A stretch of DNA of 64,000 nt from an uncultured Gemmatimonadales bacterium. Lineage in GTDB: Bacteria; Gemmatimonadota; Gemmatimonadetes; Gemmatimonadales; Gemmatimonadaceae. Location of the stretch: positions 896,001 to 960,000 of the forward strand of contig CAWKNZ010000002.1 of assembly GCA_963851265.1 (NCBI GenBank), given 5' to 3'. Positions 1-64,000 of this stretch are shown here, in pieces. The first letter of the stretch is position 1. Every line of letters begins with the position of its first letter. The notes beneath the pieces are model-generated. The model was not told the DNA's origin and searched no databases. It was given only the letters and a program-made list of their open reading frames with translations. Both the position numbers and the translations under genes were made by a program.

Positions 1-1066
1 CCTCGATCAGCCGCGCGACGGCCGCCGCCGCCGCGCCCGCCGTCTGTCCGCCGCGGTCGAAGAGGTCCGCCTGCGGCGCTGCGGCCGCCCGCGCGGCTTC
101 CACCCGCAGCGCGAGCCCGCACACGCCGTCCGGGAGCTCGACGCGTTCCAGCTCCGCTCGCAGCAGCCGGCGCCACGCGGCGGGGTCGGCGGTGTCGCGC
201 GCGGCCCGCACGCGCCGCTCCACCGCACCGCCGCCGGCGAGCTGCACCACGAGCGTCATCGCGCCCGCTCCCTCGCCGCGCGCGTCCAACGCCTCGCACA
301 CGCGCGCAACGAGCCGGCCCGCGACGAACAGCAGTCGCTCGGGCTCGCGCAGGTCGAACTCGGTCCACTCGAGCGACGCCGACGGCAGCGCGTGCCCGGC
401 GTGCCGGAACACGCGCCGCGCGTCGTCCGCCCGCGCGAGCTTCCAGAGGGCGACGCCTGCTGCCCCGAGCCGCACCTCCACCGCCTCCCGCGCGATGCGG
501 GCGAGCGCGCCGCACGTGACCACGCCCACGTCGGCGAGCGCCGCCACCGCCCGCGCCACCGCGGCCGGCGATACGGCGGCCGGCGATACGGCGGTCCCCG
601 TGTCGCCGGCCGCGTCGGCCGTCACCGAGGGCAGCAGCGTGCTCAGCGCGTGCGGGGCGAGGAACGCGCGCTCGGCGTTCGGCGCCACCCCGGTCAGCGG
701 CGCTTCCTGCCCGCCTCCCCCGCCTCCGTGCGCCCCCCAACGCGCCCCCCAACGCGCCGCCACCTCTGCGGCCACCGCGACGCGCGCGACCCCCACGCGC
801 GGCCGCGCGACGTGCTCTGCGCGCGCATGGCGCAACACTTCACGCGCCACCCAACGCGCCGGCAGCCCGCGCCCGTCCGCCCAGACGTACGTCCCGCCCT
901 CGGCCGGCACCACCACCGCGTGCGGCGTCACGCCGAGGAGTCGCGCGAGCAGCGGGGGCAACGCGCCTGCGTTAGGCGTCGTCGGCGCAGCCCCCGGCGG
1001 AGTCGCCTCCGCCGCCGGCTCCGCGGCGGTCGGCCGGTCGGGGGTCCAGAGCGTCACGAACGTCAT
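1..1066 (-). CDS. imuB: ImuB-like Y-family polymerase-fold protein (partial, runs off left edge)
   Basis: Not in the ORF track; translated by hand from ATG 1066: MTFVTLWTPDRP...LADVGVVTCGALARIAREAVEVRLGAAGVALWKLAR...LEWTEFDLREPERLLFVAGRLVARVCEALDARGEG...QADLF. This resembles ImuB thumb/little-finger regions and has a QxDLF clamp-binding-like motif. It lies directly downstream of and overlaps imuA. Confidence 0.7.
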   Translation of the reverse strand, partial: MTFVTLWTPDRPTAAEPAAEATPPGAAPTTPNAGALPPLLARLLGVTPHAVVVPAEGGTYVWADGRGLPARWVAREVLRHARAEHVARPRVGVARVAVAAEVAARWGARWGAHGGGGGGQEAPLTGVAPNAERAFLAPHALSTLLPSVTADAAGDTGTAVSPAAVSPAAVARAVAALADVGVVTCGALARIAREAVEVRLGAAGVALWKLARADDARRVFRHAGHALPSASLEWTEFDLREPERLLFVAGRLVARVCEALDARGEGAGAMTLVVQLAGGGAVERRVRAARDTADPAAWRRLLRAELERVELPDGVCGLALRVEAARAAAAPQADLFDRGGQTAGAAAAAVARLIE

Positions 1067-1757
1067 ACGCGGCCACCGCGAGCGTGACCTCCGCCCGCGC
1101 ATTCCACCCCAGCGCGCGCGCGCGCACCTCGGCACGCACCTCCGCCGGCGCCGCGGCGCCGAACGGCCCGCGCTGCCACCGCACCGCCCCCGGCAGCAGC
1201 CGCGACGTGATCCGCAGCGCGGCCATGCTCCCGCGCTCCGTGAGCACGACGAGCGCCGCCCCGCCGTCGCGCGTCGCCCGCGTGAGGCGCACCGTCTCGG
1301 TCCCCGCCGGCTCGCTCCCCGCCGCCATCTCGAGCACCACGAGCGCGAACGCCCCCGACCGCAGCACGAGCTCCGCACAGCGTAAGGCGTTCATCCGGTC
1401 GTTGGGCTGCACGACGAGTGGCAGCCGGTCCCCGCCGGGCGCGTCCGCCGCCGGCCACCCCCAGCCGTACGTCAGCGTCTCGGTGCCGTCGATCCAGGCG
1501 GCCCGCTCGCCGTCGGCGATCGCCGCGCGACACGCCGACCGCAGCACCGTCGCCGCCCCGGCCGCGGGCGCCCACGCCGTGAGCTTGCCCCGCGGCAGCC
1601 CGCCCCCCGGCAGCGCGCGGTCGAGCGCCGGGATGTTGGTCGACACCGGGCGCGCCAGCCGCTCCGCGTCCCGCTCGACCAACGGCCGCGCGTCCGGAAA
1701 CTGCTCGGCCAGCAGGCGCCGGACGTCCTGAATCGCGCGGAGCGGGGCGGCAGGCAC
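972..1757 (-). CDS. imuA: ImuA-like RecA-fold protein
   Basis: STNIPALDRALPGGGLPRGKLT RecA-like N-terminus with degenerate Walker A; AAWIDG; AELVLRSGAFALVVL; precedes an ImuB-like gene. Confidence 0.75.
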   Translation of the reverse strand: MPAAPLRAIQDVRRLLAEQFPDARPLVERDAERLARPVSTNIPALDRALPGGGLPRGKLTAWAPAAGAATVLRSACRAAIADGERAAWIDGTETLTYGWGWPAADAPGGDRLPLVVQPNDRMNALRCAELVLRSGAFALVVLEMAAGSEPAGTETVRLTRATRDGGAALVVLTERGSMAALRITSRLLPGAVRWQRGPFGAAAPAEVRAEVRARALGWNARAEVTLAVAAYDVRDALDPRPADRRGAGGGGDSAGGCADDA

Positions 1758-1859
1758 GGTGCGAGGTCCGGTGGCGGGGCGCGGGTGACGGGGGCATCCG
1801 GGTGGGCAGGGGTTAGGCAGCCGCGTCGGAACCCGCTCGGCGCGAGCGGCGGGCGGCCA

Positions 1860-3933: not shown

Positions 3934-4181
3934 GGATAGGCGCGAGGGGCTCGCCGGGCGGGGCGCCACGTGCGCCCCGCCCGGCGGGCTCGATTTGCCA
4001 GTACAGTAGTCGCGCGTACACCCGGCGCGGAATGTCGGGAATGTGCAACAGTGCGATCGTAGCACGCGCGCCACGGGCGTCCGGCCCGGTGGCGGGTGGG
4101 CGCCGTGCTTCCGTTAGGCGCGGCACGGCGCGCCGACCGGCTACGTTTCGACGCCCGTCGACCCCTCCCACTTTCGCGCCC

Positions 4182-7186: not shown

Positions 7187-7200
7187 CGTCCGGCCGTACG

Positions 7201-8790
7201 TTAGGCCGCGCGGGACGCGCCCGGCCGGGCGCCCGGCGATTCGTTAGGCGTCACCGCGGCCGCGCGTTCTGCAGTTGACGCACGCTCGCCCTCGGCCGAC
7301 GGCTGGCCGCGGCGGTGGGCGAGGGCGGCGCGGGCCTCGGCGACGGCGTCGGCGAGGCGGGCGGCGGCGTCGGCGCACTGGGCGGGGGTGTGGTCGGCCT
7401 GGGCCTGGAGGCGGAAGCGCGCGGCGCGCACGCCGACGGCGGGGAACTCGACCAGGTTGGCGAAGAGCCCGCGGCGCAGCACGCCGCCGCTGGCCAGGCG
7501 CGCCAGCGGGGTGTGGCCGATGAGCACGGGCACCACGGCGGCGGGCTCGCCGAGGCACGCGAGCCCGCGCGCGCCGAGCGCCGCGCGCAGCGCCGCGACG
7601 TTGGCCAGCAGGCGCTCGCGGCGCGCGGCGCCCTCGGGCCCGCGCACGATGGCGAGCGCCGCGCGCACCACGGCCACCTGCAGCGGCGAGAGCGCGTTGG
7701 AGAACGTGTAGGGGCCGCCGTAGGCCTCCAGGTAGGCGCGCACCCCGGCGGAGCGCGTGGCCACGAAGCCGCCGTTCGAGGCGAAGGTCTTCGAGAACGC
7801 GCCCATCACCAGGTCCACCTCGCCCAGGAGCCCCGAGCGCCCCACGTGCCCCGTGCCCCCGGGGCCGAGCGCGCCGAAGTCGTGCGCCACGTCGACCAGG
7901 AGCGTCGCCTGGTACTCGCGGCACACCGCGCGCATGGCGCCGAGGTCGGGCGAGTCGGCGTCCATCGAGAACAGGCCCTCGGTGAGCACCAGGATCCCGT
8001 GGCGCGCGTCGGCCGCGCGGATCTGGGCGAGCGCGCGCGCCAGGGCCGGCACGCTCAGGTGCTCCACGCGCGTCACGTTCGCGGTGGCCGCCTGCGCCCC
8101 GGTCTGCAGCGAGGCGTGCGCCAGGCGGTCCATGACCACGTGGTCGTCGGGGCGCACCAGCGCGGTCACCGCCGCGAACGCCGCGCCCCAGCCGCTGGAG
8201 AAGAGCACCACGTGCTCCACGCCCAGCGCCTCGCCCAGCTCGCGCTCCAGCGCGCGCGAGGCCGCCGAGCGCCCCTGCAGCGCGCCCGAGCCCCCGGAGT
8301 GCACGCCGAAGCGCTCGAGCGCGTCGGCCGCGGCCGCCCGCACCGCCGGGTGCGCCGCGAGCGAGAGGTAGTCCTGCGTGGCGAAGTTGAGCCCCTCCAC
8401 GTAGCCCGCCCCCGCCGCCGCGTCCCCGGCCGCCCCGGGCGCGAACCGCGCCCCCTCGGCCCGCGCCACCGGGCCCACGCCCCCCTCCACCGCCCGCGCG
8501 TACGGCCACACCTCGGCCGCGCGCCGCGCCGCGATCCACGGCGCGATCCCCGCCGTGCGCGCCACCAGGTCCGGCCCGCTCGGCCGCGCGAACTCCGCGA
8601 AGCTCCCCCGCAGCGGGTCCACCCCCGCCCACGCCCCCGCGTCGAGCGCCCCCGCCGCGACCCCGGCCGCCGACGCGCCCGCGGCGGCCGCGGGCGGCGT
8701 AGACGGATCAGAGGGAGGAACGAGCGACGGATGAAGCGGCACGAGGAACGCGGTTCGGGACAGCGGAGCGACGAAGCCAGACAGGATCAC
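7201..8790 (-). CDS. PLP-dependent alpha-oxoamine synthase family protein (KBL/BioF/SPT/CqsA-like)
   Basis: NFATQDYLSLA, GVHSGGS, LFSSGWGA, DRLAHASL, EGLFSMD, DVAHDFG, GAFSKTF (PLP Lys). The true start may be downstream of 8790. Confidence 0.85.
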   Translation of the reverse strand: MILSGFVAPLSRTAFLVPLHPSLVPPSDPSTPPAAAAGASAAGVAAGALDAGAWAGVDPLRGSFAEFARPSGPDLVARTAGIAPWIAARRAAEVWPYARAVEGGVGPVARAEGARFAPGAAGDAAAGAGYVEGLNFATQDYLSLAAHPAVRAAAADALERFGVHSGGSGALQGRSAASRALERELGEALGVEHVVLFSSGWGAAFAAVTALVRPDDHVVMDRLAHASLQTGAQAATANVTRVEHLSVPALARALAQIRAADARHGILVLTEGLFSMDADSPDLGAMRAVCREYQATLLVDVAHDFGALGPGGTGHVGRSGLLGEVDLVMGAFSKTFASNGGFVATRSAGVRAYLEAYGGPYTFSNALSPLQVAVVRAALAIVRGPEGAARRERLLANVAALRAALGARGLACLGEPAAVVPVLIGHTPLARLASGGVLRRGLFANLVEFPAVGVRAARFRLQAQADHTPAQCADAAARLADAVAEARAALAHRRGQPSAEGERASTAERAAAVTPNESPGARPGASRAA

Positions 8791-8980: not shown

Positions 8981-8998
8981 CACACAACCTGCTGCAGC

Positions 8999-9142: not shown

Positions 9143-9393
9143 TGGTAGGACTCCTAGAGGGAAGGCGGCGGTGTGGAACCGGCGGGGCGGCGGGGAGCCA
9201 CTCGAGGACGCACGACTGCGGTGTGACGTCACACCGGCACTGCGCGAATCGCGGCGCGTGCACACAGCGTGAGTTACAGGGCCGCCGAGGGTCCTTCAAC
9301 CCTGGGATGTGCTGCACCTCACATCACGCATGCGATCCCGAACGCGGCGCGTGTTAGGCACCACGACGCCGGCCGCACCGGCTTCCAAACCGC

Positions 9394-11089: not shown

Positions 11090-14000
11090 TCACGCCGCCC
11101 GGATGCGGCGCGCGAGCGGCGTGTAGTCGAGCGCGCGCGCGTGCACCAGCGACCGGTGCAGCATCGCCTCCGCCACCGGTCCGACGCCGCGCAGCAGCGG
11201 CGCGCATTCGGCTGCCAACCAGAGCGCGGCGTACGGGTCGTACCGTTCCGCGCGCTCGATGCGCGCGAGCAGCAGCTCCGCCACGTCCGCGCGCGAACGG
11301 CCGGTCGCCGCCGCAACCCGGACGTGGAGCGCGTCGCACAGCTCGCGCCCCTCAAACCACCACTCCGCCCGCTCCGCAAACCGCAGGTCCACCACGGCCT
11401 CCCGCTGCACCGCCCCACGCACCGCGCCGAGGTCGAGCTCGGCCAGACCGCCGCCCGCGAGCGCGCCAAGGTGTACCCCGGATTGGCCGAGCGCCTCGGC
11501 GGGTCCGAGGCATGCAGCGTACAGCTCCAACGCCCCGGCCGCGTCGCCCTGCGCGCGCGCGAGGTGTGCGAGGTTGTACAGCGTCACGAGCCGCTGCGGT
11601 TCCATCGCGAGGGCCGTGAACAGCTGCCGCGCCTCCTGCAGCGACTCCTCGGCCTGGGTGAACCGGCCGGTCTTGAGCATGAGGATGCCGAGGTTCCCGA
11701 GCGCGGTGGCGATCGTATTGCGCGTCCCGAGCTCACGGCCAATGGCTAGGGCCGTGCCGTACGCGACTTCGGCCGCGGCGTGGTTCCCCGACCGGTCGCA
11801 TGCGATGCCGATGTACCCGTGCGCCCGCTCCTGCCCGCGCCGGTCGCCGAGTCTCGTGTACAGGTCGAGTGCGCGCCGGTAGTGCGGGACCGCGTCGGCC
11901 GGACTCGTCTCGTGGCGCCCGGCCGAGACGACGTCGAGGACGGTGACGCCGACACGCATCGCTGCTGCGGCGTGCAGCTCGAGGTTGGGGAGGGGGGCCG
12001 CCGCGGCTACCGCCTCCGCGGCATAGCGTTCCGCGTCGCCTGAGTCGCCGAGCGCGGCGTGCGCTTCGGAGCACATGATGAGCAGCCACACGACTTCCTC
12101 GGTCGCGCCCGCGGCGCGCGCGTCGGCGAGCAGTGCGACGCAGCTCGCCAGCACGTCGCTCGCCGGTGCGCCGCGCTTGAGAAGTAGCCGCTGTTGCATC
12201 CGGCGCGCGGCCCAGAGCACGCCGAGCGTTTCGGAACCGTCGACGAGTTCGGTGAGCAGCGCCGTACATTCGGTGTCCGCCGCGGCGTGGTCGCCACGCA
12301 CCTCGGCGATCCCGGCGAGGCGCCATGCGACCGCGGCCATGTCGGAGCGCGCGCGGGCGTGCCGACGCGCGACCGCGAACAGCTCGGCCGCACTGTCGTA
12401 CGCGTGCGCGGCCGACGCCCGCGCTCCCGCCTCGAACGCCGTTCGGAACGCGTCGGCCGCGCAGCCGGCGCGGTCGAAGTGCCGGGCCACGTCCGCCGTG
12501 GTCACGTCGCCGCGCGACTCGAGCGCGCGGCCGACCCGCTCGTGCACGCGCCGGAGGCGCAACGGATTGACGCCCGCCTGCAGCACCCGCGGCAACAGCG
12601 CGTGCGCGAACGTGAGGGACGTGGCCGCCCGCGGCGACCGCTTGACCACGGCGGTGGCGAGGCCGGCGTCGAGCGCGTCGAGCACCTCGTCCTCGTCACG
12701 GTCGCAGGCGGCCGCGAGCGTTTCGGCGTCGAAGTCGCGGCCCAGGACGGCCGCGACGGCGAGGATGTCGCGCTGTCCGCGGCCGAGTCGCGCAATCCGC
12801 CGGGCGAGCAGGTCGTGGACCGCGCGTGGCAGAGGCGCCTCGTGTGGGCTACGCGCGGCCGCGGCGTCGAACACCCACCGCCCGTTCACCGCGCGCAGCT
12901 GACCGGCGTCGGTGAGGGCGCGGAGGGTGTGGGCGACGAACAACGGGTTGCCCTCGCTCTGCGCGGCCACGTACGCCAGAAGGGCGGGGTCCGCAGGCTG
13001 TCCGCCGAGCGCGGTGCGCAGCCATTGCGCGAGGACGTCGGAGCGGAGGCGGCCTAACGAGATCTCGGTGTACCGCTCCGACCGCGACAGGCGCGCACGC
13101 CGCGCATCCGCCGCCTCGTCGAGGTCGTCCGCGCCGATCGCCAGGCAGACGAGCAGCCGCTGCTCGCTGGTGCGCACGGCGAGAAACTCGAGCGCCTCCC
13201 ACGTCGCGGCGTCGGCCCACTGGGCGTCGTCGATGATCACGGCGAGGGGACGCGTGGCGGTGACGAGCGACAGAAAGTGGTGCAACTCGTCGAGCAGCAC
13301 GTACGGGGACCCGCCCGACGCGGGCAGCGGATCCACGACCGCGCGCGGTCCATCGGACGGATCGGCGAGTTCGGGGACGAGCCGCGAGAGCTCGCGCCAC
13401 GCGCGGCGCGGCGCGAGGCCCGCGCGCCAGGCCGCGAGCACGATGTCGGCCCACGGGCCCAGCGGCGGGCGCACGTCGGCTTCGAGACAGCGCGCCACGA
13501 GCAGCGACCCGGCGCGCACGCCGACGTCGGGGGCGAGCTGCTTGAGCAACGCCGACTTGCCTGCGCCCGCCTCGCCGACGACGGCGACGAGTTGCGGTTC
13601 GCCGCGCGCGGCGGCATCGAACAGGCGGCGCAGGCGCTGCCGCTCGTCCACACGTCCGACGAAGCACTCGAGAACGGCGTCGGCGTGCGCGGCGGTGCCG
13701 GACCCCGCGCGGGTGACCGCGTCGCGCCCGGCGCGCTTGGCGCCGTACAGCGCACCGTCCGCAGCGGCGAAGAGAGCCTCGAGCGTGTCGCCGTGTTCGG
13801 GAGCGGTCGCGACTCCGATCGACAACGTGACGCGAACGGTTTCCCCCGTGCCGTCCCGCCGCGGGCACGCCGACGCCGCGACCGCGGCTCGCAGTCGCTC
13901 CGCCACGACGCACGCCTCATCCAGCTGCGTGCCGGGGAGCAGGACGACGAATTCGTCGCCCGCGTATCGCGCCGGCAGGTCGCTGGGCCGGGTATTCGCG

Positions 14001-20625: not shown

Positions 20626-21716
20626 GCGGCGGCGTGCGCCGCGGCCGACGGCGCGCGGCCCGGCTCGGTCGCCCCGTCTCCGGCGCCTTCGACGCGCTGC
20701 GGAACTGGTCCGCGCTCCGCGTGGATCGGCGACGCGCCTTCGGCCAGTTCGGCGCGACTGCGCGTGGTGGGCGGCGGGACGTCCACGCGCACGGTGTTCT
20801 CGCCCGCGACCGCGCGCGCGGCGATGTCGACGAGCGCGGCGACGAAATCTGGACGCACGTTAGGCAGCGCCGTACGCCGGTAGGTGATGCCGAGTTCCTC
20901 GGCCTTGTGCTTCGCCTCGATGTCGAGATCGTAGAGGATCTCGAGGTGGTCGCAGACGAAACCGATGGGCACCTGGAGGACGTGCTCGACGCCTTCGGAC
21001 CGCAACTGGGGCAGGAAGTCGAGGATGTCGGGACCGATCCAGGGCTCGCCGGTCATGCCGGCGCTCTGCCACGCGCGGCGGTAGCCGGGAAGCCCCGCGC
21101 GCTCGGACACGAGCCGTGCGCTCTCTTCGAGTTGCGCCTCGTACGGGTCGCCCCAGGTGCGGATGCGCTCGGGCAGCGAGTGTGCCGAGAACACGACCGT
21201 GACGTCGCCGCGCTCGGTGGCGGGCCACTTCGCGAGCTCGTCGCCGACCACGGTCGCGATCGTGCCGATGAAGCCGGGGTCGTCGTGCCACTGCTCGACG
21301 AAGTCGACCGTGAATTCGACGCCGTGCTTGTGCATGCCTTCGAACAGGTAGCGCTGGTACCCGCCGACCGAGAAGCGAGAGTAGTGCGGCGCGAGCACGA
21401 GGCAGACGACGCGCTCGACGCCGTCGGCCGCCATCTGCGCGACCGCCTCGGCGATCCACGGCGTCCAGTGCTTCATACCGACGTACACGGGCACGTCGAG
21501 GCCGCGCGCCGCGAGGCCGGCGGCGACCGCGTCCCGCACCTCGTTCGTGAGGCGCGTGAGCGGCGTGCGACCGCCCACCGCCTCGTACCGGTGCCGGAGG
21601 TCGTCCATCCGCTCCTGCGAGGGCGGGCGTCCGCCGCGGATGTGCGTGTAGTACGGCTCGATGTGCTCCGGCGTCTCGGGCGTGCCGTATGCGAGGAGCA
21701 GCAGTGCGGTCTTCAT
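20622..21716 (-). CDS. hemH: Ferrochelatase (resembles monoderm-type coproporphyrin ferrochelatase)
   Basis: LLAYGTP...YYTHIRGGR...RYEAVGG, GMKHWTP, LAPHYS, FSAHSLP, WQSAG..GEPWIGPDI, GFVCDHLEILYDLD. Confidence 0.92.
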   Translation of the reverse strand: MKTALLLLAYGTPETPEHIEPYYTHIRGGRPPSQERMDDLRHRYEAVGGRTPLTRLTNEVRDAVAAGLAARGLDVPVYVGMKHWTPWIAEAVAQMAADGVERVVCLVLAPHYSRFSVGGYQRYLFEGMHKHGVEFTVDFVEQWHDDPGFIGTIATVVGDELAKWPATERGDVTVVFSAHSLPERIRTWGDPYEAQLEESARLVSERAGLPGYRRAWQSAGMTGEPWIGPDILDFLPQLRSEGVEHVLQVPIGFVCDHLEILYDLDIEAKHKAEELGITYRRTALPNVRPDFVAALVDIAARAVAGENTVRVDVPPPTTRSRAELAEGASPIHAERGPVPQRVEGAGDGATEPGRAPSAAAHAAA

Positions 21717-29762: not shown

Positions 29763-29803
29763 CTGCGCGTCGGGCGGACGGCGCGACTGGGATCGCGTAG
29801 TCG

Positions 29804-38051: not shown

Positions 38052-38085
38052 CCGGCCCGCCGCTCACGCCTAACACTTCTCCGCC

Positions 38086-45162: not shown

Positions 45163-45777
45163 TCAGGCCTGGCCGTAGCGCTTCGCGACCTCGCCCCAGT
45201 TGACCGTGTTCCACCACGCGTCGATGTAGTCGGGGCGGCGGTTCTGGTACTTCAGGTAATAGCTGTGCTCCCACACATCGAGGCCGAGCAGGACGGCGCT
45301 GGGACTCATACCATCCATCAGGGGGTTGTCCTGGTTAGGCGTGCTCGTGATGGCGAGCTTGTCACCCTGACGGACCAGCCACGCCCACCCCGAGCCGAAG
45401 CGCCCGACCGCGGCCGCCTTGAACTGATCGCGGAACGTGCCGAAATCGCCGAAGCTCGACCTGATGGCCGACCCGATCCCGTCGGCCGGTTCGCCGCCCG
45501 CGTTGGGGCCCATCAGCTGCCAGAACAGCGAGTGGTTCCAGTGGCCGCCGCCGTTGTTCCGGATCGGTCCGCGGACCGCCTCCGGGGCGGTGTTGAGGTT
45601 CGCGAGTAGTTGCTCGATCGACTGACCCGCCAGCTCGGGCGCCTTCTCGATCGCGGCGTTCAGGTTGGTGACGTACGCCTGGTGGTGCTTGTCGTGGTGG
45701 ATCGACATCGTCTGCGCGTCGATGTGCGGCTCGAGCGCGTCGGGCGAATAGGGAAGCGGCGGCAGCGTGAAGGCCAT
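45163..45777 (-). CDS. sodA: Fe/Mn superoxide dismutase (Mn-type residues)
   Basis: [41 protein letters not shown]. Confidence 0.95.
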
Positions 45778-48363: not shown

Positions 48364-48400
48364 CGCGCGCGCCGCGGGCGTGTTGGTGTTAGGCGCGGGC

Positions 48401-51253: not shown

Positions 51254-52123
51254 TCACGAGTCGCGACGGTGCTCCTGCAGCACGTCGCCGATCTGCGTAC
51301 ACGCGAGAACCGTCACGACGAGCAGCAGGCCGGGTACCAACGACACCCACGGCGCGACGATCAGCAGGTCGCGCCCGCCGGCGATGAGGTTGCCCCAACT
51401 CGGCGCCGGCGGCTGCACGCCGAGCCCGAGGAACGAGAGCCCGCTTTCGAGCAGCACCGCGTTGCCCACGCCGAGCGCCGTCGCGACCACCGCGGCGCCA
51501 AGCGCGTTCGGCACCACATGCCGCCAGAGGACGCGCGCCGGTGCCGCGCCGAGCGCGGCCGCGGCGGTCACGTACTCGGCGCGCACCACGCCGAGCGCCT
51601 CGGCGCGCACGAGCCGCGCGACGCCCATCCACCCGGTGAGCGCGAGCACCGCGACGGTCGTTCGGACCCCGGGGCCCCAGAGCGCGGCCACGACGAGCAG
51701 GAGCACGATGCGCGGGACGGCGAGTAGCACGTCCGCGACGGCGGTCACGGCGCGATCCGCCACGCCGCCGCGCCACGCCGCCGCGGCGCCTAACACCGTG
51801 CCCAACACCCCGGACAAGACCGACCCGCCGACGCCCACCGCGAGCGACAGCCGCGCCGCGGCGAGCGCCCTCACGAGGAGGTCGCGGCCGAACGCGTCGG
51901 TGCCGAGCGGGTGCCAGAGCCCGAGCGCGTCACGCGCGCCGGGCGGCACGAGTCGGCGCGCGAGCACGTCCCCGATCCCCTGCGCGTCGGCCGGGGCGAG
52001 CACCGGTACGACGAGCGCGGCCGCCGCGAGCACGCCGAGTGCGGTGGCCGGCCACGCGATCGCCCGGATCCGACGCGTCCGCACGCGCGGTTCCGCCCCC
52101 GCGCGGCCGTCATCGACGCGCAT
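51254..52123 (-). CDS. ABC transporter permease (DppC/OppC-like)
   Basis: HPLGTDAFGRD, EYVTAAAALGA, HVVPN, ESGLSFLGLGVQPPAPSWG. Confidence 0.92.
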   Translation of the reverse strand: MRVDDGRAGAEPRVRTRRIRAIAWPATALGVLAAAALVVPVLAPADAQGIGDVLARRLVPPGARDALGLWHPLGTDAFGRDLLVRALAAARLSLAVGVGGSVLSGVLGTVLGAAAAWRGGVADRAVTAVADVLLAVPRIVLLLVVAALWGPGVRTTVAVLALTGWMGVARLVRAEALGVVRAEYVTAAAALGAAPARVLWRHVVPNALGAAVVATALGVGNAVLLESGLSFLGLGVQPPAPSWGNLIAGGRDLLIVAPWVSLVPGLLLVVTVLACTQIGDVLQEHRRDS

Positions 52124-54791: not shown

Positions 54792-57715
54792 GCACGTTGT
54801 ATCTCTCGCCGTCCGACGTGGCCGCCCGACGAGCCGTTGTCGCCCGACCGGATGCAACCCTCGGTCTGCTGGCCGAATCGCTCGCCCGGGAACTCGCGCC
54901 GGTGGTCGCGCGCTCCGTCTCGCTGCCGCCCAACAAGGCCCGGATGACGCGTCGCGGCGGCATCTGTCCACGAGACGGCGCCCGCCTCGCGTTCGACCCG
55001 TTCGCCCCGCGTGCGCATCGATGCGACGCGTGCGGCACGGTGTACGACCGAGACGAGGATTACGAGTGGTGGACGTTCGGGTATCAGCTCTGGCTCGCCG
55101 AGCGGTCCGTCCACGCCGCGGCCCTCGCGCTCGTCGCCGGCCGCGACGCGGGTACGCCGGGTGGCGCGTTAGGCGTCCCCGAGCTGGCCGCCTTCGCCGC
55201 GCGCGTGCTCGACGCGCAGGCCGACGCCTATCTCACGTATCCGAACCGCGACAACGTCCTCGGCCCCACGCGCCCCTTCTTCAGCACGTACCTCGAGTCG
55301 CTCTGGCTCGTGCACGTCTGTACCGCGCTGGACCTGCTGCGGGCCGCGGTGCCGCGCGCGTACGACGCACTCGCCGCCCGCGTGATCGATCGAGTGGTCG
55401 AGCCGAGCCGCGTCCTGATCGCGGGTTTCCCGGAGGGGACTTCGAACCGCCAGGTCTGGCATGCCGCGGCGCGACTCGCCGTTGCGCGCGTGGTCGGCGA
55501 TGGGCGAGCGGCGGCGGACGCCGTATACGGCCCATCCGGGATCGCCGACCTGCTGCGCAGCGCCCTGCTCCAGGACGGGAGTTGGTACGAGGGCGACAAC
55601 TACCACCAGTTCGCACACCGCGGTTTCTGGTACGCCCTGCGTTTCGCCGAACGCGCCGGCCTCGAGATCGCCCCGGAACTCCTCGATCGGTTCCGAGCCG
55701 GTTATGCCGTCCCATTCCGCGTCGCGCTCCCCGATGAAACGCTCCCGGCGCGACGCGATTCGCAGTACGCCGTCTCGCTCCGGCAATGGCGTTGGGCCGA
55801 GTGGTGCGAGCTTGGCCTGGGCGAGCACGTCGGCCCGCCACTTCGCGGTGCGCTCGCGAAGCTGTACCGCCCGACCGACCCGCCGCTCCCATCCGCGACG
55901 GGCCGTTGGCGAAGCACGGGTGAGAGTGAGCGGAACGAGCCCGCGAGCGCGCTCTCGCGTGCCGACCTCGGCTGGAAGTCACTGCTCTTTGCATTGCCCG
56001 AGCTGCCGCCGGCGCAGGCCGACGCCATGCCCCGCTCGGTGCTGCTCGCGGCGCAGGGATACGCGGTGCTCCGCCCGGCAGGCGGCCGCGTCTACGCCTC
56101 GCTCGATTTCGGCGGCGGCGGCGGTGGGCACGGGCATCCAGACCGGCTGAACGTCCTCGTCCAGGACGGCGTCTCCCGGTGGCTCGACGACCCAGGTACG
56201 GGGACGTATGTGGAGCGCACGCTGCACTGGTACCGGAGCACCCTCGCGCACGCGGCGCCGCTCGTCGACGGCCGTTCGCAGCAGCCGGGGCGAGGCACGC
56301 TCGAAGCGTTCGACCCCGGTCCCGACCAACCCGACGCACTCGAACGCATCGTCCCGCGCTTCGCCGGCGTTGCGGCGTGGACGGCGGTCGACGGCGTCGT
56401 CGCGCGCCGAGCCGTCGTCGCGACGGACGCGTACGTCGTCGACCGGTTTGCCTGGCGCGCGCCGCGTTCGCGGCTCGTCGACCTGCCCCTGCACGTCGAC
56501 GGCACCATCGACGGGTCGGCGTCGGAATGGTTGCCGTTCGAGCCGGGCGGCGCGGGCGGGCTCGAGGACGGTTTCGATTTCGTGCGGGCCGCCGAAGCGA
56601 CCGTGCCCGACAATTCGCCGGTCCGCCTGCGCCTCGTGAGCCGCGGTGGGCGCGCTGAGCGGCCGCCCGCGCTCTGGCTCGCGTCGCCGGAGATGACGCT
56701 CTGGCGCGGGATCGCCCCGGGGCCGCCCGGATTCGGCGAACGGCGGTTTCACGCCGTCCGCATGCGGGGCGCGCGTGGGACGGTCGTCGCGATCTGGGAT
56801 CTGAGAGGCGCGATCCAGAACGTCACGGTGGAACCGGACGCAATCACGATCGTGCTCGCCGACGGCACCGTCGATCGCCACGCTCCTCCACCGCGGTGGC
56901 GCGCCGGCGGCGCGCCGACCGCGGCGGGCGCGCCGGCCGGAGGGCGCTCGTGGCGCGTCGAACGGACGCGAACGGACGGCATGCGGGCCGAGCGGCAACT
57001 CGTGCTCGCGCGCTCCGCCGCTCCGCGGCGAACGCGCGCGGGCGACCGCACAATCGTCGACGCGCTCGCCGTCGCGCTCGCCGGGGCCACCTACACGCTC
57101 GCCGACGGAGAGGCCGCGCTCACCTTCCGACTCGGCGCATCGCACTACCTGCGCTCCGAGCCGTCGTGGGAGGATGCGGGCAGGCCGACGGCCACCGTCC
57201 GCGTCCGCGTCGTCGGCTCGGCCCTGACGATCGACGTCGACGTCGGACTCGGTCGCGCGCCTTCGTTCGCGGCCGCCGGGTCGGAAAACCCCCTCGACAA
57301 CGAGCGTGCAGACGTGAACAGTGACGGACTGCAGCTACTCGTCAGTCCCGCTGCAGCCCCATCGAGGAGCGCTGCGTGGCTCCTCGTTCCCGACGTGCGC
57401 GCGCCGGACGTGCGCGTGACGCCGACCGCGGGCCACCCCGCCGGCGACGCGCGCGCGGTCCGACTCGACGCACGGTGGAACCCGCGCGCGGACGGGTGGA
57501 GCATGCACTGTAGCGTCCCGCGCGACGCCATCGACGGCGATCTGGTCGCGGTGGACCTCGCGATCAACGAGAAGCCTCCCGATCGAGACCGCCGCCGCGG
57601 GCAGCTCACCCTCGGCGAACCGGACGGCGCGTTCGTGTATCTTCGGGGAGACCGCATGAGCGCCGCCCGCGCGCTGCGGTTCGTGCTCCCGCCGGCGTCC
57701 GCGCCCGCGGTGTAA
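54788..57715 (+). CDS. Heparinase II/III-like polysaccharide lyase-fold protein
   Basis: DGSWYEG..YH, GGGHGHPDRLN, DDPGTGTY, WYRSTLAH; N-terminal CP.DG...H.C..CG; extra C-terminal domain. GTG start overlaps the SBP stop. Confidence 0.8.
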   Translation: MSTLYLSPSDVAARRAVVARPDATLGLLAESLARELAPVVARSVSLPPNKARMTRRGGICPRDGARLAFDPFAPRAHRCDACGTVYDRDEDYEWWTFGYQLWLAERSVHAAALALVAGRDAGTPGGALGVPELAAFAARVLDAQADAYLTYPNRDNVLGPTRPFFSTYLESLWLVHVCTALDLLRAAVPRAYDALAARVIDRVVEPSRVLIAGFPEGTSNRQVWHAAARLAVARVVGDGRAAADAVYGPSGIADLLRSALLQDGSWYEGDNYHQFAHRGFWYALRFAERAGLEIAPELLDRFRAGYAVPFRVALPDETLPARRDSQYAVSLRQWRWAEWCELGLGEHVGPPLRGALAKLYRPTDPPLPSATGRWRSTGESERNEPASALSRADLGWKSLLFALPELPPAQADAMPRSVLLAAQGYAVLRPAGGRVYASLDFGGGGGGHGHPDRLNVLVQDGVSRWLDDPGTGTYVERTLHWYRSTLAHAAPLVDGRSQQPGRGTLEAFDPGPDQPDALERIVPRFAGVAAWTAVDGVVARRAVVATDAYVVDRFAWRAPRSRLVDLPLHVDGTIDGSASEWLPFEPGGAGGLEDGFDFVRAAEATVPDNSPVRLRLVSRGGRAERPPALWLASPEMTLWRGIAPGPPGFGERRFHAVRMRGARGTVVAIWDLRGAIQNVTVEPDAITIVLADGTVDRHAPPPRWRAGGAPTAAGAPAGGRSWRVERTRTDGMRAERQLVLARSAAPRRTRAGDRTIVDALAVALAGATYTLADGEAALTFRLGASHYLRSEPSWEDAGRPTATVRVRVVGSALTIDVDVGLGRAPSFAAAGSENPLDNERADVNSDGLQLLVSPAAAPSRSAAWLLVPDVRAPDVRVTPTAGHPAGDARAVRLDARWNPRADGWSMHCSVPRDAIDGDLVAVDLAINEKPPDRDRRRGQLTLGEPDGAFVYLRGDRMSAARALRFVLPPASAPAV

Positions 57716-57753: not shown

Positions 57754-58587
57754 ATGCCGTCGCTGCTCGACCAGGTCCGCGTCGTTCTCTACGAACCGCA
57801 GAAGCCCATCAACATCGCGGCGACCGTGCGCGCGATGAAGAACATGGGCGTCGGCGAGTTGCGCCTGGTCCGGCCCTGCGCGTACGACGCCAACTACATC
57901 GAGGTGATCGCGCACCACACGCGCGACATCGCCGACCGCATCGCGCACTTCGACTCGCTCGAGGCCGCGCTCGCTGACTGCGTGCGCGTGGCGGCGTTCA
58001 CCGGACGCCGCCGGGCCGCCAAGTGGCCGATCGCCACGCCGCGCGCCGCGGCCGCCGACCTCGCCGGGTACGCGACGGACGGTCCCGTCGCCGTCCTGTT
58101 CGGGCGCGAGGACGACGGGCTCCCGGCCGACGCGATCGACCGCGCGCACTTCGGCGTCACGATTCCGACCACCGCGCACGCGTCGCTGAACGTCGCCCAG
58201 GCGGTGCTCGTCGCACTCTACGAGCTGCACCTCGTCGCGGACGACGCGACCGTGCCGTTAGGCCGTCCGCGTCGCCACGCCGGCCCGCCCACCACCGCGC
58301 AGCTCGAGGAGTTCTTCGGCGACACGCAGCGCGCGCTCGCCGCCCTCGACTTCTTCCGGACGCGCAGCATCGAGCACGTGATGCGCGGCATCCGCTCCCT
58401 CGTCTTCCGCGCCTCGCCCGACGAGCGCGAACTGGGCCTCACGCGCGCGATGGCCTTCGAGGTGATCCGGACGATCGAGCGCGAGCGGACGCGGGCGTAC
58501 GCCGCCGGCTTCGACGCGGCGCGCGCCGAGCGCGCGGCCGCCGCGCCCGACGACGGCGCGCGCGACGCCGCCGTCCACTCTCCGTGA
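57754..58587 (+). CDS. TrmJ/LasT-type SPOUT RNA methyltransferase
   Basis: VVLYEPQKPINIAATVRAMKNMG, LFGREDDGL, IPT....SLNVAQAV..ALYE. Confidence 0.88.
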   Translation: MPSLLDQVRVVLYEPQKPINIAATVRAMKNMGVGELRLVRPCAYDANYIEVIAHHTRDIADRIAHFDSLEAALADCVRVAAFTGRRRAAKWPIATPRAAAADLAGYATDGPVAVLFGREDDGLPADAIDRAHFGVTIPTTAHASLNVAQAVLVALYELHLVADDATVPLGRPRRHAGPPTTAQLEEFFGDTQRALAALDFFRTRSIEHVMRGIRSLVFRASPDERELGLTRAMAFEVIRTIERERTRAYAAGFDAARAERAAAAPDDGARDAAVHSP

Positions 58588-59819
58588 CCCCGGCGTCGGC
58601 GAATTGGCGAGCGCGCGCCGCGGACGCCGTGGCGGCCGACGCGAGCACCGGGAGCAAGCGCCCGGCCGCGCTCTACGGCGCGTCCGACGCGCCCGATGCG
58701 CCGCTGCACTACATCCGCGCCGAGGGCTGTCGCGTCGTCACCGCCGACGGCCGAACGCTGGTGGACTGCACGAGCGCGCTCGGCGCGGTCGCGCTCGGCT
58801 ACGCCGACCCCGACGTCACCCGCGCCGTGTGCGACGCGGCGCGCGCGGGCCCCGTGAGCGGGCTGACGTCGACGCTCGAACCCGCGCTCGCCGAGCGGCT
58901 CGCGGCGACCGTGCCGTGCGCCGAGCGCGCGCTCTTCCTCAAGAGCGGCGCCGAGGCGACCAGCGCGGCCGTGCGCGTCGCGCGCGCGGCCACGGGGCGC
59001 GACGTGGTGCTCGCGAGCGGCTACTTCGGTTGGCACGACTGGGCGAGCGACGCCGACACGCGCGGCGTCCCGGCGGCCGCGCGGGACGCGGTCGTGCGCC
59101 TAACGCGCGACGACGTCCCCGCGCTCGCGCGAGCGGTCGACGCGGTCGGCGCGTCGCGCGTCGCGGCGATTCTCGTTGAGCCCGTCGTCGAACGGTTCCC
59201 CGACACCGCGTGGCTGCACGCGCTGCGCGACACGGCGCGGCGCATCGGCGCGGTGCTGATATTCGACGAGGTCAAGACGGCGTTCCGCCTCGCGCCCGGC
59301 GGGTATCAGCAGCTCGCGGGCGTTTGGCCCGACCTCGCGGTGATCGGCAAGGCGCTCGCCAACGGCTACCCGCTCGCAGCCATCGTCGGACGGCGCGACG
59401 TGATGGACGCGGCGCGCCGCACGTGGATCTCGTCGACGCTCGCGAGCGAAGCCACCGCCCTCGCGGCCGCGCACGCCGTACTCGACCGGCACGCCGCGGC
59501 CGACGTGTGCGGCGCGGTCGCCGCGCGCGGATGCGCATTCCGCGCCGCGGCGTCGCGCGCCCTCGCAGACGTGGCCGCGTGTGAGGTCCTCGGCCTCGAC
59601 GCGATGTGGTTCGTGCGCTTCGGCCCATCGGCGCAGGCAACCGGCGGCGCGCGCGAGGGCGCGTTCCTGCGCGCGGCGCGCGACCGCGGCGTGCTGTTCA
59701 AGCGTGGCGCGTACCAATATGCGATGCTCGCGCACGACGCGGCGGCGCTCGCCGCCGTCGCCGCGTCAGCCGATGCCGGCGCCGCGGCCGTGCGCGCGCT
59801 CGACGAGGGCGGCGCGTGA
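58584..59819 (+). CDS. Class III PLP aminotransferase (GSA-aminomutase-like paralog)
   Basis: LGYAD, FLKSGAEATSAAVRVAR, GYFGWHDW, IFDEVKTAFR, GKALANGYPL, SSTLASE. Confidence 0.88.
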   Translation: MTPASANWRARAADAVAADASTGSKRPAALYGASDAPDAPLHYIRAEGCRVVTADGRTLVDCTSALGAVALGYADPDVTRAVCDAARAGPVSGLTSTLEPALAERLAATVPCAERALFLKSGAEATSAAVRVARAATGRDVVLASGYFGWHDWASDADTRGVPAAARDAVVRLTRDDVPALARAVDAVGASRVAAILVEPVVERFPDTAWLHALRDTARRIGAVLIFDEVKTAFRLAPGGYQQLAGVWPDLAVIGKALANGYPLAAIVGRRDVMDAARRTWISSTLASEATALAAAHAVLDRHAAADVCGAVAARGCAFRAAASRALADVAACEVLGLDAMWFVRFGPSAQATGGAREGAFLRAARDRGVLFKRGAYQYAMLAHDAAALAAVAASADAGAAAVRALDEGGA

Positions 59820-61821: not shown

Positions 61822-62460
61822 ATGACGATGAGACGAAAGTGGCAGGCCATCCCGGGCTTCCTCGCCCTGGCGGCCGCCGCCACCGTGGTCTCGGCGTACA
61901 GCGGCGCATCGTCGTCGCAGTACCGCTCTCCCGAACAGCCCATCCACTTCCCGCACCCGCGACATGCCGGCGCGGTGAACCTGAAAGACCCCAACCACAG
62001 CGGATTGGGGATGAACTGCTTGTATTGCCATTACGCGTCCAACAAGTCGCCCGACGCGGGCATGCCGGCGGTCGGTACGTGCATGGGCTGTCACACGGTC
62101 GTGCTCGGCAAGGCGGATAGCTCCAAGAAGCAGATTGCGAAGCTCACGGCGTATTGGAACCGCCGGCAGCCCGTCGCGTGGGTCCGCATTCACAAGGTGC
62201 CGGACTACGTGAACTTCCCGCACATGCGCCACGTCAACGCGGGCGTGACCTGCCAGACGTGCCACGGCAAGATCCAGGGCCAGTGGCAGGTGCAGCAGGC
62301 CGCCTCGCTCAACATGGGGTGGTGCATCAACTGTCACGTGAACGGCTACCGGCCGGGCGAGGGCGCTCGCCTCGCCGGCGCGCCCGACTCCGTGATCCAA
62401 GCCGCCGACAAGCTGCCGGTCCACAAGGCCCGGTACGACTGCTCGTCGTGTCACTACTGA
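61822..62460 (+). CDS. actA: Pentaheme cytochrome c, alternative complex III subunit A-like
   Basis: N-terminal anchor; QPIHFPHPRHAG; five CxxCH motifs (CLYCH, CMGCH, CQTCH, CINCH, CSSCH); LNMGWC. Confidence 0.88.
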   Translation: MTMRRKWQAIPGFLALAAAATVVSAYSGASSSQYRSPEQPIHFPHPRHAGAVNLKDPNHSGLGMNCLYCHYASNKSPDAGMPAVGTCMGCHTVVLGKADSSKKQIAKLTAYWNRRQPVAWVRIHKVPDYVNFPHMRHVNAGVTCQTCHGKIQGQWQVQQAASLNMGWCINCHVNGYRPGEGARLAGAPDSVIQAADKLPVHKARYDCSSCHY

Positions 62461-62471
62461 ACCGGCCCCGC

Positions 62472-64000
62472 ATGACCACCGAAGCTGGGACCGCGCGCAG
62501 CGCTGAAAGCGGCGTCAAGCGCCGCGACTTCCTCAAGATTGTCGGCGCCGGCACGGCCGCCACGGCCGCCGTCGGATGCACCTCCGAAAACGTCGGCCGC
62601 CTCCTGCCGTACGTCGCACAGCCCGACCAGACGGTCTCGGGCGTCACCAACTACTACGCCACGGTGTGCCGCGAGGGCGGCGGTGCCGCCGGCGTGTACG
62701 CCGCCGTTCGTGACGGCCGCGTCTACAAGCTCGAGGGGAACCCCTCGCATCCGGCCAACCGCGGTGCGATCTCCGCGCGCTCGCAGGCCGCGCTGCAGGG
62801 CGTGTACAATCCCGACCGGTACCGCGCGCCGTTGATCCGCCAGGAAGGCCAGCTCCGGCAGACCACCTGGGACCGCGCGCTCAGCGTGCTCGCGCAGCAG
62901 TTAGGCACGCTCCGCAGCCGCGGCCAGGCCGGCAACGCGGTGTTCATCAACCAGGCCGAGCTCGGGTCGTTCCCCGGCTTCCTCGATCAGTGGCTGGCAG
63001 CCTTCGGTATGCCGGCGCACCTGAGCTACGACGCGGAGGCGCCGCTCGCGGTGATGGCGGCCAACCGCGCGTCCTACGGCGGCGTGGCGTGGCCGCGCCT
63101 CGACTTCAACGCGTCGCGGCTCATCGTCTCGTTTTCGGCCGACTTCCTCGACCACTGGGGGAACGTCGTTCCGCAGCAGCTCGACTGGGCCGACGCGCGG
63201 GCGAAGCTCGAAGGCGCGCCACGCATGATCTACGTCGGCCCGCGCCGCTCGCTCACCGGACTCAACGCCGACGAGTGGATCCCCGCGCGCGCGGGCAGCG
63301 AGCTCGCGATCGTCGGCCTGCTCCGCGGCCAGCTCGGCGCCGCGGCCGCGGCGCAGCAGAGCGGTGTGTCGCAGGCCGTGCTCGAACGGCTCGCGCAGGA
63401 AGTCACGGCCGCGGGCAACGGCTTCGTCGGCCTCGCGGGCTCGACGGCGAGCAACGCGGGCGAGCTCGCGACCGCGGTCAATGCGCTCAACGCGAGTGCG
63501 GGTGCCGTCGGGCGCGCCGTCCGCCCCGACCAGGCGCATCCCGCGTACGCCCGCGTCGCGTCGCACGCCGAAGTGCGTGCCCTCGTCGACCGCATGAACG
63601 CGGGCCAGGTCCCGCTGGTCATGGTGCGCGGCGCCAACCCGGCGTACTCGACGCCCGCGCAGCTGCAGTTCGCGGCGGCGTTCAAGAAGGTGCCGTTCAA
63701 GGTCTCGTTCTCGAGCTACCCGGACGAGACGAGCGAGCTGGCCGATCTCGTGCTGCCCGACCACCACCCGCTCGAGGCGTGGGGTGACGCGGAGGCCGGG
63801 CCCGGCCAGGTCGCGATCCAGCAGCCCACGATGGACCCGGTGTTCGACACGCGTCAGACGGCGGATGCCCTGCTGGCGCTGGCGCACTCGGACCAGACGA
63901 CGGCCGCGCGGTTCCCGCAGGCGAGCTACCGCGCGTTCCTCATGAGCCGCTTCCCCGGCGGTGTCACGGGGTGGACGGCCGCGTCGCCGAAAGGCGTGGT
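62472..64000 (+). CDS. actB: Molybdopterin-oxidoreductase-fold ACIII subunit B-like protein (partial)
   Basis: Not in the ORF track; translated by hand: MTTEAG..KRRDFLKIVG (Tat) ..AVGC (lipobox-like), LLPYV, KLEGNPSHP, GVYNPDR, ADFL..W, DETSELAD..LPDHH.LEAWGD. Open to the window end. Confidence 0.85.
   Translation, partial: MTTEAGTARSAESGVKRRDFLKIVGAGTAATAAVGCTSENVGRLLPYVAQPDQTVSGVTNYYATVCREGGGAAGVYAAVRDGRVYKLEGNPSHPANRGAISARSQAALQGVYNPDRYRAPLIRQEGQLRQTTWDRALSVLAQQLGTLRSRGQAGNAVFINQAELGSFPGFLDQWLAAFGMPAHLSYDAEAPLAVMAANRASYGGVAWPRLDFNASRLIVSFSADFLDHWGNVVPQQLDWADARAKLEGAPRMIYVGPRRSLTGLNADEWIPARAGSELAIVGLLRGQLGAAAAAQQSGVSQAVLERLAQEVTAAGNGFVGLAGSTASNAGELATAVNALNASAGAVGRAVRPDQAHPAYARVASHAEVRALVDRMNAGQVPLVMVRGANPAYSTPAQLQFAAAFKKVPFKVSFSSYPDETSELADLVLPDHHPLEAWGDAEAGPGQVAIQQPTMDPVFDTRQTADALLALAHSDQTTAARFPQASYRAFLMSRFPGGVTGWTAASPKGV

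Follow-up and report, generated by a model that had tools for sequence, protein, structure and literature searches.

An eight-letter DNA word written thousands of times into the genes of some Gemmatimonadaceae and their phages

The window considered here is a stretch of 64,000 nucleotides from the genome of an uncultured Gemmatimonadales bacterium (GenBank assembly GCA_963851265.1, contig CAWKNZ010000002.1, positions 896,001 to 960,000; G000:C2:896001-960000, where G000 denotes the whole genome), in which an earlier note had pointed to 23 dispersed copies of the heptamer GTTAGGC or its complement GCCTAAC. All 23 coordinates proved exact, with 17 copies on the plus and 6 on the minus strand (Table 1), while dinucleotide shuffles of the window contain 1.86 copies on average and 6 at most, and 0 of 100 reach 23. 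According to our own gene calls (3,689 genes in G000), ten copies are read as xxG TTA GGC, five as xxG CCT AAC and one as CTA ACG, three form GCC TAA stops and four are intergenic. The use of several frames, of both gene orientations and of intergenic positions is therefore as first described, but three genes rather than four end on GCC TAA. Likewise, near-variants are rare as regards GTTAGCC, GTTAGTC and GTTAGAG, which occur once each, but not as regards GTTGGGC (17 copies) and GTTCGGC (46), which are common in the window. The window samples a feature of the whole genome, which named homologues assign to the Gemmatimonadaceae, and the candidate reader genes lie outside the window. The feature is an eight-letter word, CGTTAGGC, written thousands of times into the genes of some Gemmatimonadaceae and of their phages; it constitutes a real, genome-wide iterated-word system with a mutational footprint, not previously reported. 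Full-text searches for GTTAGGC, GCCTAAC, and Gemmatimonadota methylation motifs or uptake sequences, from whose scope most subscription papers and all supplements fell out, returned no account of the dispersed word and no methylome.

Over the 4.60 Mb of G000, GTTAGGC occurs 1,762 times on the two strands together and on 12 of 12 contigs, which corresponds to observed-to-expected ratios (O/E) of 11, 18 and 14 against Markov models of order 1, 2 and 3. It is the top 7-mer against the first-order model and the second, after its own overlap, against the third-order one; a Markov test of maximal order masks the word because its sub-words consist of the word itself. When synonymous codons are shuffled, 59 coding copies are expected and 1,290 are found (O/E 21.8), so that the ratio stays far from 1 under a codon-preserving model, and the enrichment seen in the window holds in the rest of the genome. 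Among the 21 one-mismatch words, only GTTGGGC (2.7) and GTTCGGC (1.45) clearly exceed 1 in the same shuffle. The coding copies comprise 995 xxG TTA GGC, 204 xxG CCT AAC, 68 CTA and 23 GTT AGG readings, and 284 copies are intergenic. The tie to disfavoured codons that had been suspected is confirmed by the internal TTA codons, 990 of which lie within the word and 270 outside it; the word also supplies 122 of the 430 TAA stops and 83 of the 735 TAG stops. The base preceding GTTAGGC is C in 79% and T in 14% of copies, a preference that is the same where the word is read on the other strand, and the full word is thus (C>T)GTTAGGC.

Table 1. Copies of the word in the window (window coordinates) and candidate reader genes elsewhere in G000
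Feature	Position	Strand	Context
CGTTAGGCG	971..977	+	ACG CCT AAC (Thr-Pro-Asn) in minus-strand gene
GGTTAGGCA	1812..1818	+	intergenic; preceded by G, class without halo genome-wide
CGTTAGGCG	4113..4119	+	intergenic by our gene calls
CGTTAGGCC	7200..7206	+	GCC TAA stop of gene 7201-8790(-)
CGTTAGGCG	7243..7249	+	ACG CCT AAC in gene 7201-8790(-); 43 bp from copy at 7200
TGTTAGGCA	9353..9359	+	intergenic
CGTTAGGCC	13052..13058	-	TCG TTA GGC (Ser-Leu-Gly) in gene 11090-16036(-), GGDEF-domain protein
CGTTAGGCA	20859..20865	+	CTG CCT AAC in gene 20622-21716(-)
CGTTAGGCA	26698..26704	-	GCC TAA stop of gene 26311-26703(+), weak gene score
CGTTAGGCG	29159..29165	+	GCG TTA GGC in gene 28830-29762(+)
CGTTAGGCG	29803..29809	+	GCC TAA stop of gene 29804-30388(-)
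CGTTAGGCG	36362..36368	+	GCG TTA GGC in gene 36174-37112(+)
GGTTAGGCT	36851..36857	+	CGG TTA GGC in gene 36174-37112(+)
TGTTAGGCG	38068..38074	-	intergenic
CGTTAGGCC	40369..40375	-	GGG CCT AAC in gene 40121-41194(+)
GGTTAGGCA	43884..43890	+	CGG TTA GGC in gene 42277-44313(+)
GGTTAGGCG	45334..45340	+	ACG CCT AAC in gene 45163-45777(-)
TGTTAGGCG	48388..48394	+	GTG TTA GGC at start of gene 48386-51247(+)
TGTTAGGCG	51788..51794	-	GTG TTA GGC in gene 51254-52123(-)
CGTTAGGCG	55168..55174	+	GCG TTA GGC in gene 55040-57715(+)
CGTTAGGCC	58257..58263	+	CCG TTA GGC in gene 57754-58587(+)
CGTTAGGCG	59098..59104	-	CGC CTA ACG in gene 58629-59819(+)
AGTTAGGCA	62900..62906	+	CAG TTA GGC in gene 62472-65756(+)
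fimT-pilV-pilW-pilX/ComZ-like operon	G000:C3:171439-175722	-	candidate reader
methyltransferase-SNF2 pair	G000:C7:579720-585511 (L001:5721-11512)	-	candidate reader

Individual sites are conserved between species. In 385 kb aligned with a congener, 75 of 127 sites are kept, and among positions where leucine is unchanged the TTA of the word is retained at 62 of 81; retention is 8.5% for TTG, 6.8% for silent A/T of other kinds and 1 of 12 for TTA outside the word. Retention so far above the silent background shows that individual sites are actively maintained, and together with frame independence and the use of rare codons it supports the proposal of a genome-wide cis signal at the DNA level. 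Word occupancy climbs with the GC content of third codon positions (GC3, a proxy for residence), from an O/E of 0.39 to 1.71, and convergent spacers hold 14.3 copies per 10 kb, divergent ones 2.3. The longest gap, of 45 kb, covers mnmG-parA-parB-mnmE in G000; it was singled out after the fact and does not reach significance by itself (p 0.0017, the lowest of 104 windows). Counts around parB are also low in G001 (7 vs 24), G205 (6 vs 18), G158 (10 vs 19), G234 (26 vs 39) and G012 (44 vs 61), weakly low in G004 (17 vs 24, p=0.10) and not depleted in G113 (11 vs 13). Canonical parS is absent beside parAB in the own genus (G000:C1:195824-197530 and the parAB loci of G001 and G004), and one or two parS lie directly beside parAB in G113, G158, G205, G234 and G012.

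Coding sites also keep their distance from one another. In a pair correlation computed out to 20 kb, only 2 pairs in G000 lie within 100 bp (33.5 expected), 8 at 100-200 bp (34 expected) and 16 at 200-300 bp (35 expected), with normal numbers beyond, and a second site is excluded on both sides and in the same as well as the opposite orientation. The pair at window positions 7200-7249, with copies 43 bp apart and one of them a stop codon, is a rare exception to this spacing rule.

The same length is shared by a halo of GC-biased change. When A/T at synonymous third positions is compared with the expectation from codon context, position in the gene and the gene itself, the O/E of silent A/T is 0.69 at 9-50 bp from a site, 0.72 at 50-100, 0.82 at 100-150, 0.90 at 150-200 and 0.93 at 200-300 bp, that is, about 30% lower within 100 bp and back to normal by 300 bp. 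The halo is symmetric (fitted decay 194 bp, amplitude 0.40), and around a site preceded by C or T the zone with fewer silent A/T and hardly any second site extends for about ±200-300 bp, as a genome-wide rather than a per-site measure. It extends from intergenic sites into neighbouring genes and is absent, genome-wide, at sites preceded by G. Same-peptide controls, GTTGGGC, other rare codons and TTA outside the word are all flat, and among 250 random 7-mers the effect is unique to the word (0.72 vs 0.92 for the next unrelated word). Taken individually, 602 of 802 genes have lower silent A/T near the site. The halo tracks the genome that bears the site, albeit with wide errors: sites found only in G004 give 0.78 in G004 and 0.95 in G000, and sites found only in G000 give 0.75 in G000 vs 1.08 in G004. 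It repeats in G004 (0.65) and G234 (0.77), is only weakly visible in G012 (0.96, or 0.92 vs 1.07 at four-fold sites) and has no 10-bp periodicity. Near sites all A/T-ending codons drop and amino acids shift slightly towards GC-rich codons, which argues for a mutation or conversion bias and not for translation. The halo is thus a motif-centred record of GC-biased change in bacteria, and it offers, at about 1,300 coding positions of a single genome and with controls already in place, a direct test of why bacterial genomes are richer in GC than their mutation bias would make them. All this suggests that a protein not yet described reads the word and alters the exchange or repair of nearby DNA.

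The trait is patchily distributed. Among 31 relatives, those of the own genus carry 977-3,304 copies, G012 carries 7,758, four genomes 531-681 and the other 21 from 8 to 233, many of these last in attC-like pairs. Across 251 genomes of the phylum, 10 have more than 300 copies of CGTTAGGC, all within the own order and in two families, and the 81 genomes outside that order have at most 70 each. Genus g42 is bimodal, with 1,586-4,141 copies in 12 of 26 genomes and 4-66 in the other 14. As the word is switched on and off between congeners, its reader should be findable by comparing close genomes. Word-poor genomes show only background counts of it, with no sign of enrichment or avoidance, and 80 kb from each of four of them yielded no conspicuous word that could take its place; the unpublished genomes G011, G077, G116, G197 and G371 serve as word-poor rows in the tallies, and no claim depends on them. 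Lineage dialects differ slightly (YGTTAGGC, NGTTAGGC, CGTTAGGN).

The word is also found in viruses. Five scans of IMG/VR for paired words gave 205 flanked loci of more than 6 kb, 16 of which have a large excess beyond the two selected sites: 11 loci (7 records) with dispersed copies, and 5 resembling cassette arrays or repeats. The seven records hold 55 copies in 45.6 kb, 71 in 82.1, 35 in 17.0, 49 in 41.1, 33 in 28.6, 26 in 21.3 and 28 in 50.0, with 12, 8, 2, 2, 1, 3 and 9 copies, in the same order, of the reversed word; the resulting density of 5.6-20.6 copies per 10 kb is host-like. PHROGs profiles identify phage hallmark genes in six of the seven, with an integrase in three; none of 5 proteins of G274 matched PHROGs. 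G269 is a prophage lying in a tRNA-Pro that matches its G000 counterpart at every one of 77 bases. Its integrase belongs to a family named Gemmatimonadaceae, and its dialect is that of G012, just as G268 shares the dialect of G234; the hosts of the other five records are presumed from word and GC content alone. Prophage regions of word-poor hosts contain 0-2 copies per 13-20 kb. Phage genes show the exclusion (23 vs 45) and no halo (0.141 vs 0.140, 44 open reading frames). Among side observations, locus L443 (G269:C1:4000-19000) of this word-rich prophage has genes for three DNA methyltransferases and one for a Mom-like modification, about 250 bp are shared at 77% between the G269 prophage and G000:C2:1031069-1031315, and the virus loci L513 and L584 depart from the host dialects, with an abundance of TGTTAGGC alone or of NNTTAGGC repeats.

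Genes for natural competence are present: comEC (in 43 of 44 genomes) and pilMNOPQ were found by Pfam, and comEA, dprA, comM, pilB and pilT were detected by motif only. A candidate reader is the fimT-pilV-pilW-pilX/ComZ-like operon, whose PilW-like ortholog is present in 25 of 30 word-rich (24 of 29 plus G000), 19 of 43 word-poor and 4 of 8 intermediate genomes, an association (Fisher p 0.0013) that is overstated by kinship; the word-rich genomes negative for it are 67, 77, 78, 90 and 100% complete. Within g42 it occurs in 10 of 12 word-rich vs 4 of 13 word-poor genomes, and the last gene of the operon has the same presence pattern in 48 genomes. The 660-residue PilX-like member, which found no match in the PDB by sequence search, gives a predicted model (predicted local distance difference test score 86.7) for which ComZ is the only Foldseek match with E<0.001 (E 9.8e-9). 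By VIA the model aligns to ComZ with Z 15.4 over 334 residues at a root-mean-square deviation (rmsd) of 12, followed by an ice-binding beta-solenoid at Z 12.7. ComZ of Thermus, a pilin with a beta-solenoid, has been proposed as a DNA receptor at the pilus tip (PMC6561018); the candidate is predicted to resemble ComZ of Thermus thermophilus in this architecture, but it is 11-17% identical, superposes at rmsd 12-15 and is about 150 residues longer. As other readers, comEC, IntI and a second minor-pilin cluster were considered, and none tracks the word.

Another match to the word lies in integrons. Both ends of the attC sites of G000 read CGTTAGGC, and its cassette arrays end CGCCTAAC...CGTTAGGC. 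The universal attC primers have CGTTAG(S)C and TGTTAG(V)C at their 3' ends (PMC2927473, PMC2669170), which match the two commonest forms of the word in G000. The attC ends of word-poor genomes are variable, and the match in G000 may therefore be due in part to convergence.

Our tentatively preferred explanation, which we rate as somewhat short of probable, is that the word is an uptake tag driving short, GC-biased exchange tracts, that is, a double-stranded, orientation-blind recognition word for DNA entry. We infer uptake itself, the identity of the reading protein and the cause of the halo, as follows. A receptor at the pilus tip would prefer DNA bearing the word, the best candidate being the ComZ-like PilX protein or an operon partner. 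Only a few hundred bases around the word would then pair with the chromosome, word alleles would replace wordless alleles, and the word would spread against codon bias; as one copy per tract would suffice, second sites would be excluded below 300 bp. Finally, mismatches in the tract would be resolved towards G/C, or GC-to-AT damage would be overwritten, leaving the halo. The receptor may be tuned to cassette DNA, given the attC match, which would explain why scattered lineages share the word. Uptake is supported because strand or orientation polarity is lacking, because sites are kept between species far above the silent background, because occupancy rises with GC3 as uptake sequences miss acquired genes (PMC2397512, PMC2817400), because lineage dialects exist and competence genes are present, because a candidate tip pilin with a predicted ComZ-like fold is more frequent in word-rich genomes, and because the halo covers all A/T-ending codons, as biased conversion would. 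Any model must yield a drive for the word (log-odds of about 5.2 in its favour), saturation at about 300 bp, a GC bias of equal reach, no polarity and a benefit to phages. Of these five, word-biased uptake with short tracts resolved towards GC accounts for all but the last, and it fits the phages only if prophages exchange like core DNA.

Several observations weigh against uptake. In H. influenzae, 23% of the uptake signal sequences (USS) have another one within 100 bp, and recombination of short fragments is poor (both PMC7811141). In a Neisseria control (74 of 80 flanked loci used, of 170 found; 4 from other genera and 2 short ones dropped), 275 coding DNA uptake sequences (DUS) in 515 genes lack both the halo (O/E 1.04, 1.03 and 1.02) and the exclusion, with 25 vs 21 pairs closer than 200 bp. 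Sites favour conserved proteins (top quartile, 34 observed and 18 expected; n=84), the opposite of the trend described for USS and DUS (PMC2817400), close inverted pairs number only 6 among the 1,762 sites of G000, and the depletion around parAB is unexplained by uptake. In temperate phages the word is as dense as in the host or denser, with 63 copies in 69 kb of the G269 prophage and 8 in 13 kb of its flank, even though integrative and conjugative elements of Neisseriaceae also carry DUS (PMC7371117). The word-rich genomes of g42 form one clade. As for the operon, it was not found in the word-rich genomes G187 (100% complete, 815 copies) and G030 (90% complete), is present in 19 word-poor genomes and has no residue by which copies from word-rich and word-poor genomes could be told apart; the GRxR motif of PMC8897410 is only partly present in its FimT-like member, and ComZ of Thermus is reported to bind DNA without sequence preference (PMC6561018).

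The comparison with known systems is accordingly mixed. Like the DUS of Neisseriaceae, read by ComP, and the USS of Pasteurellaceae, the word is non-palindromic, present in thousands of copies and equally on both strands, distributed over coding DNA according to the frames available, conserved, rare in atypical genes, divided into dialects and accompanied by competence genes. It differs in belonging to another phylum, in its 7-8 bp, in its near lack of inverted terminator pairs, in its short-range exclusion and GC halo, neither of which appears in the Neisseria DUS, in its high density in temperate phages and preference for conserved genes, and in a candidate receptor that is ComZ-like and not ComP. 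The analogy drawn by the earlier note hence stands for enrichment, conservation and competence genes, and fails for close inverted pairs and for DUS-like spacing and flanks; given these two differences, and since we infer uptake rather than observe it, we say that the word works like a DUS or USS and do not place it among them. To our knowledge only two bacterial families have uptake sequences, and uptake, if true, would make this a third system, in an abundant soil phylum. Hotspot motifs of PRDM9, which are eukaryotic and erode, show halos of GC-biased conversion; they share with the word a symmetric, motif-centred GC gain over hundreds of bases, but the bacterial word is gained and kept. More speculatively still, and doubtful on present evidence, Gemmatimonadales would use the attC end as a DNA tag, with a ComZ-like receptor harvesting soil cassettes, the word invading chromosomes and phages in consequence, and the copies acting as hotspots of GC-biased exchange or repair of about 400 bp, which would be a bacterial counterpart of motif-directed biased gene conversion. 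The word may in addition serve as a host marker for phages of Gemmatimonadaceae and, if it gates the entry or establishment of DNA, would be a key to genetic tools for a phylum that is hard to manipulate.

The strongest alternative to uptake, possible but on balance unlikely, is an intracellular site of DNA care, at which a protein loaded on the word would protect or repair about 200 bp on each side, countering cytosine deamination and guanine oxidation, so that the word would be a cis-acting antimutator kept by selection and a second site inside the zone would add nothing. The halo fits this well, being symmetric with a decay of 194 bp, unique among 250 7-mers and absent in controls, visible in 602 of 802 genes, attached to the site-bearing genome, repeated in G004 and G234 and equal in length to the exclusion. 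The preference for conserved genes, the presence of the word in phages and the depletion of the parAB region in 6 of 8 genomes, as if ParB competed, would also fit, and by our estimate a linked antimutator could attain log-odds of about 5.2 provided that silent diversity amounts to several percent. The idea of a repair-system target, raised by the earlier note, thus gains from the halo but lacks a reader: Vsr was not found in G000, G012 or G234 and is present in one of five genomes tested, a word-poor one, while MutL, rejected as a reader, is in all five. Moreover, phage genes have exclusion without halo, the halo is weak in G012, the genome of highest density among the 31 relatives, and C-G divergence is no lower near sites, though it is saturated at 80% identity.

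Less plausible again is a self-mark for an intracellular gatekeeper, by which DNA without the word over some hundreds of bases would be degraded or silenced, phages would mimic the dialect and the halo would be a by-product. The host-like density and dialects of the seven virus records, the 0-2 copies in prophage regions of word-poor hosts and a trait switched on and off inside one genus are what it would predict, and lambdoid phages rich in Chi offer a precedent (PMC3784561). Against it, G000 tolerates gaps of 15-45 kb in core regions, the mean spacing of 2.6 kb is far above the 300-bp length, the halo is left without a mechanism and no patchy defence gene was identified.

We consider it improbable that the word is the target of an order-wide Eco57I-like adenine methyltransferase with an SNF2 partner, methyl-directed repair making and keeping the sites. 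An Eco57I-like protein of 1,141 residues followed by an SNF2 helicase was the only DNA methyltransferase candidate in a motif search of G000. The enzyme is single-copy and syntenic with intact catalytic motifs (29 of 30 and 28 of 28 genomes), its SNF2 partner occurs in all of 17 genomes from the order and in none of 8 from other classes, matching the taxonomic envelope of the word, and an asymmetric 7-8-mer with adenines suits type IIG enzymes. Yet it is also in 5 of 5 word-poor g42 genomes, its tree follows taxonomy without a diagnostic residue, and word-poor genomes keep the word at background without a substitute in 80 kb of four. The co-occurrence with a methyltransferase suggested earlier is consequently not seen, the sole candidate being present with and without the word, and gene distribution lends no support to a methylation target. 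Considered by itself, the Eco57I/type IIG-like pair, vertically inherited across the order and in one case fused (P0024), resembles a methylation system domesticated for housekeeping. The PAPS-reductase motif of Dnd/Ssp systems was not found by regular expression. A related parallel is the highly iterated palindrome HIP1 of cyanobacteria (GCGATCGC), which reaches up to about one copy per gene at least 15-fold over expectation, is conserved in several frames and between genes, and has no known function (PMC5861425). The word resembles it, being also intergenic and conserved in several frames, but is not palindromic, is patchy inside genera and has no co-varying methyltransferase found; a halo is not part of the description of HIP1 in the relevant passages of PMC5861425.

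A polar signal akin to Chi or the FtsK-orienting polar sequences (KOPS), read by AddAB or FtsK, is very improbable, even though the word is a non-palindromic, asymmetric octamer like Chi (RecBCD/AddAB) and KOPS or the architecture-imparting sequences, and G000 has an AddAB-like pair. The 17:6 skew, taken earlier as a hint of replichore polarity, is real locally and flips near a putative dif-like site, assigned by consensus, at C2:1368968, but genome-wide the strands hold 885 and 877 copies. Around that site 75-94% of genes are on the leading strand and Leu-Gly opportunities are sevenfold those for Pro-Asn; per opportunity, leading and lagging genes carry the word about equally (0.088 vs 0.092 for Leu-Gly, 0.125 vs 0.160 for Pro-Asn), so that gene orientation accounts for the skew. 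GGGNAGGG has a skew of its own on the same contig, and halo and exclusion are equal on both sides, the latter for either orientation. Without replichore bias or a polar effect, the analogy with Chi and KOPS is set aside; Chi, for its part, is also over-represented in some temperate phages (PMC3784561). In G000:C2:1000000-1600000, leading-strand genes reach 94% near the dif-like site and about 50% far away, the reverse of the usual origin-side bias, and GC3 is lower there. At G000:C3:244574-251614 (L007), an AddA-like gene follows an AddB-like nuclease gene and a 555-residue open reading frame without family, possibly a split AddB.

That dispersed copies are remnants of integron recombination or direct IntI binding sites is hardly credible in spite of the identity with both attC ends of G000 and the 3' ends of the universal primers, as about three quarters of sites are synonymous choices within intact genes whose orthologous positions otherwise carry ordinary codons, IntI is present with and without the word (32 of 44 genomes) and no stand-alone IntI-like binding domain tracks it. 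The attC R'/R'' boxes (GTTRRRY / RYYYAAC) have the same letters, including C or T before GTT, but dispersed copies are single, in core genes and without L boxes, not R''/R' boxes paired 40-140 bp apart in a hairpin; close GCCTAAC..GTTAGGC pairs number 11 genome-wide, several of them in cassette arrays, and the remaining sites are single. A third tyrosine recombinase (G000:C10:26753-27964, L645), 83-91% identical across the own genus and in a non-mobile-looking context, was rejected as a reader, being confined to that genus (3 of 38 genomes; not found in the 35 others). Arrays of attC-like cassettes ending in CGTTAGGC also occur in many virus records of IMG/VR, for example at loci L347, L348, L333 and L359. 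In G000 itself, the arrays at C10:185000-215025 and C6:1-7000 (L002, L003, L008) are rich in toxin-antitoxin genes (BrnT, HicAB, DUF433/DUF5615) and IS110 copies, and an intI match at C6:5244-6044(-) overlaps an open reading frame for a serine recombinase on the opposite strand.

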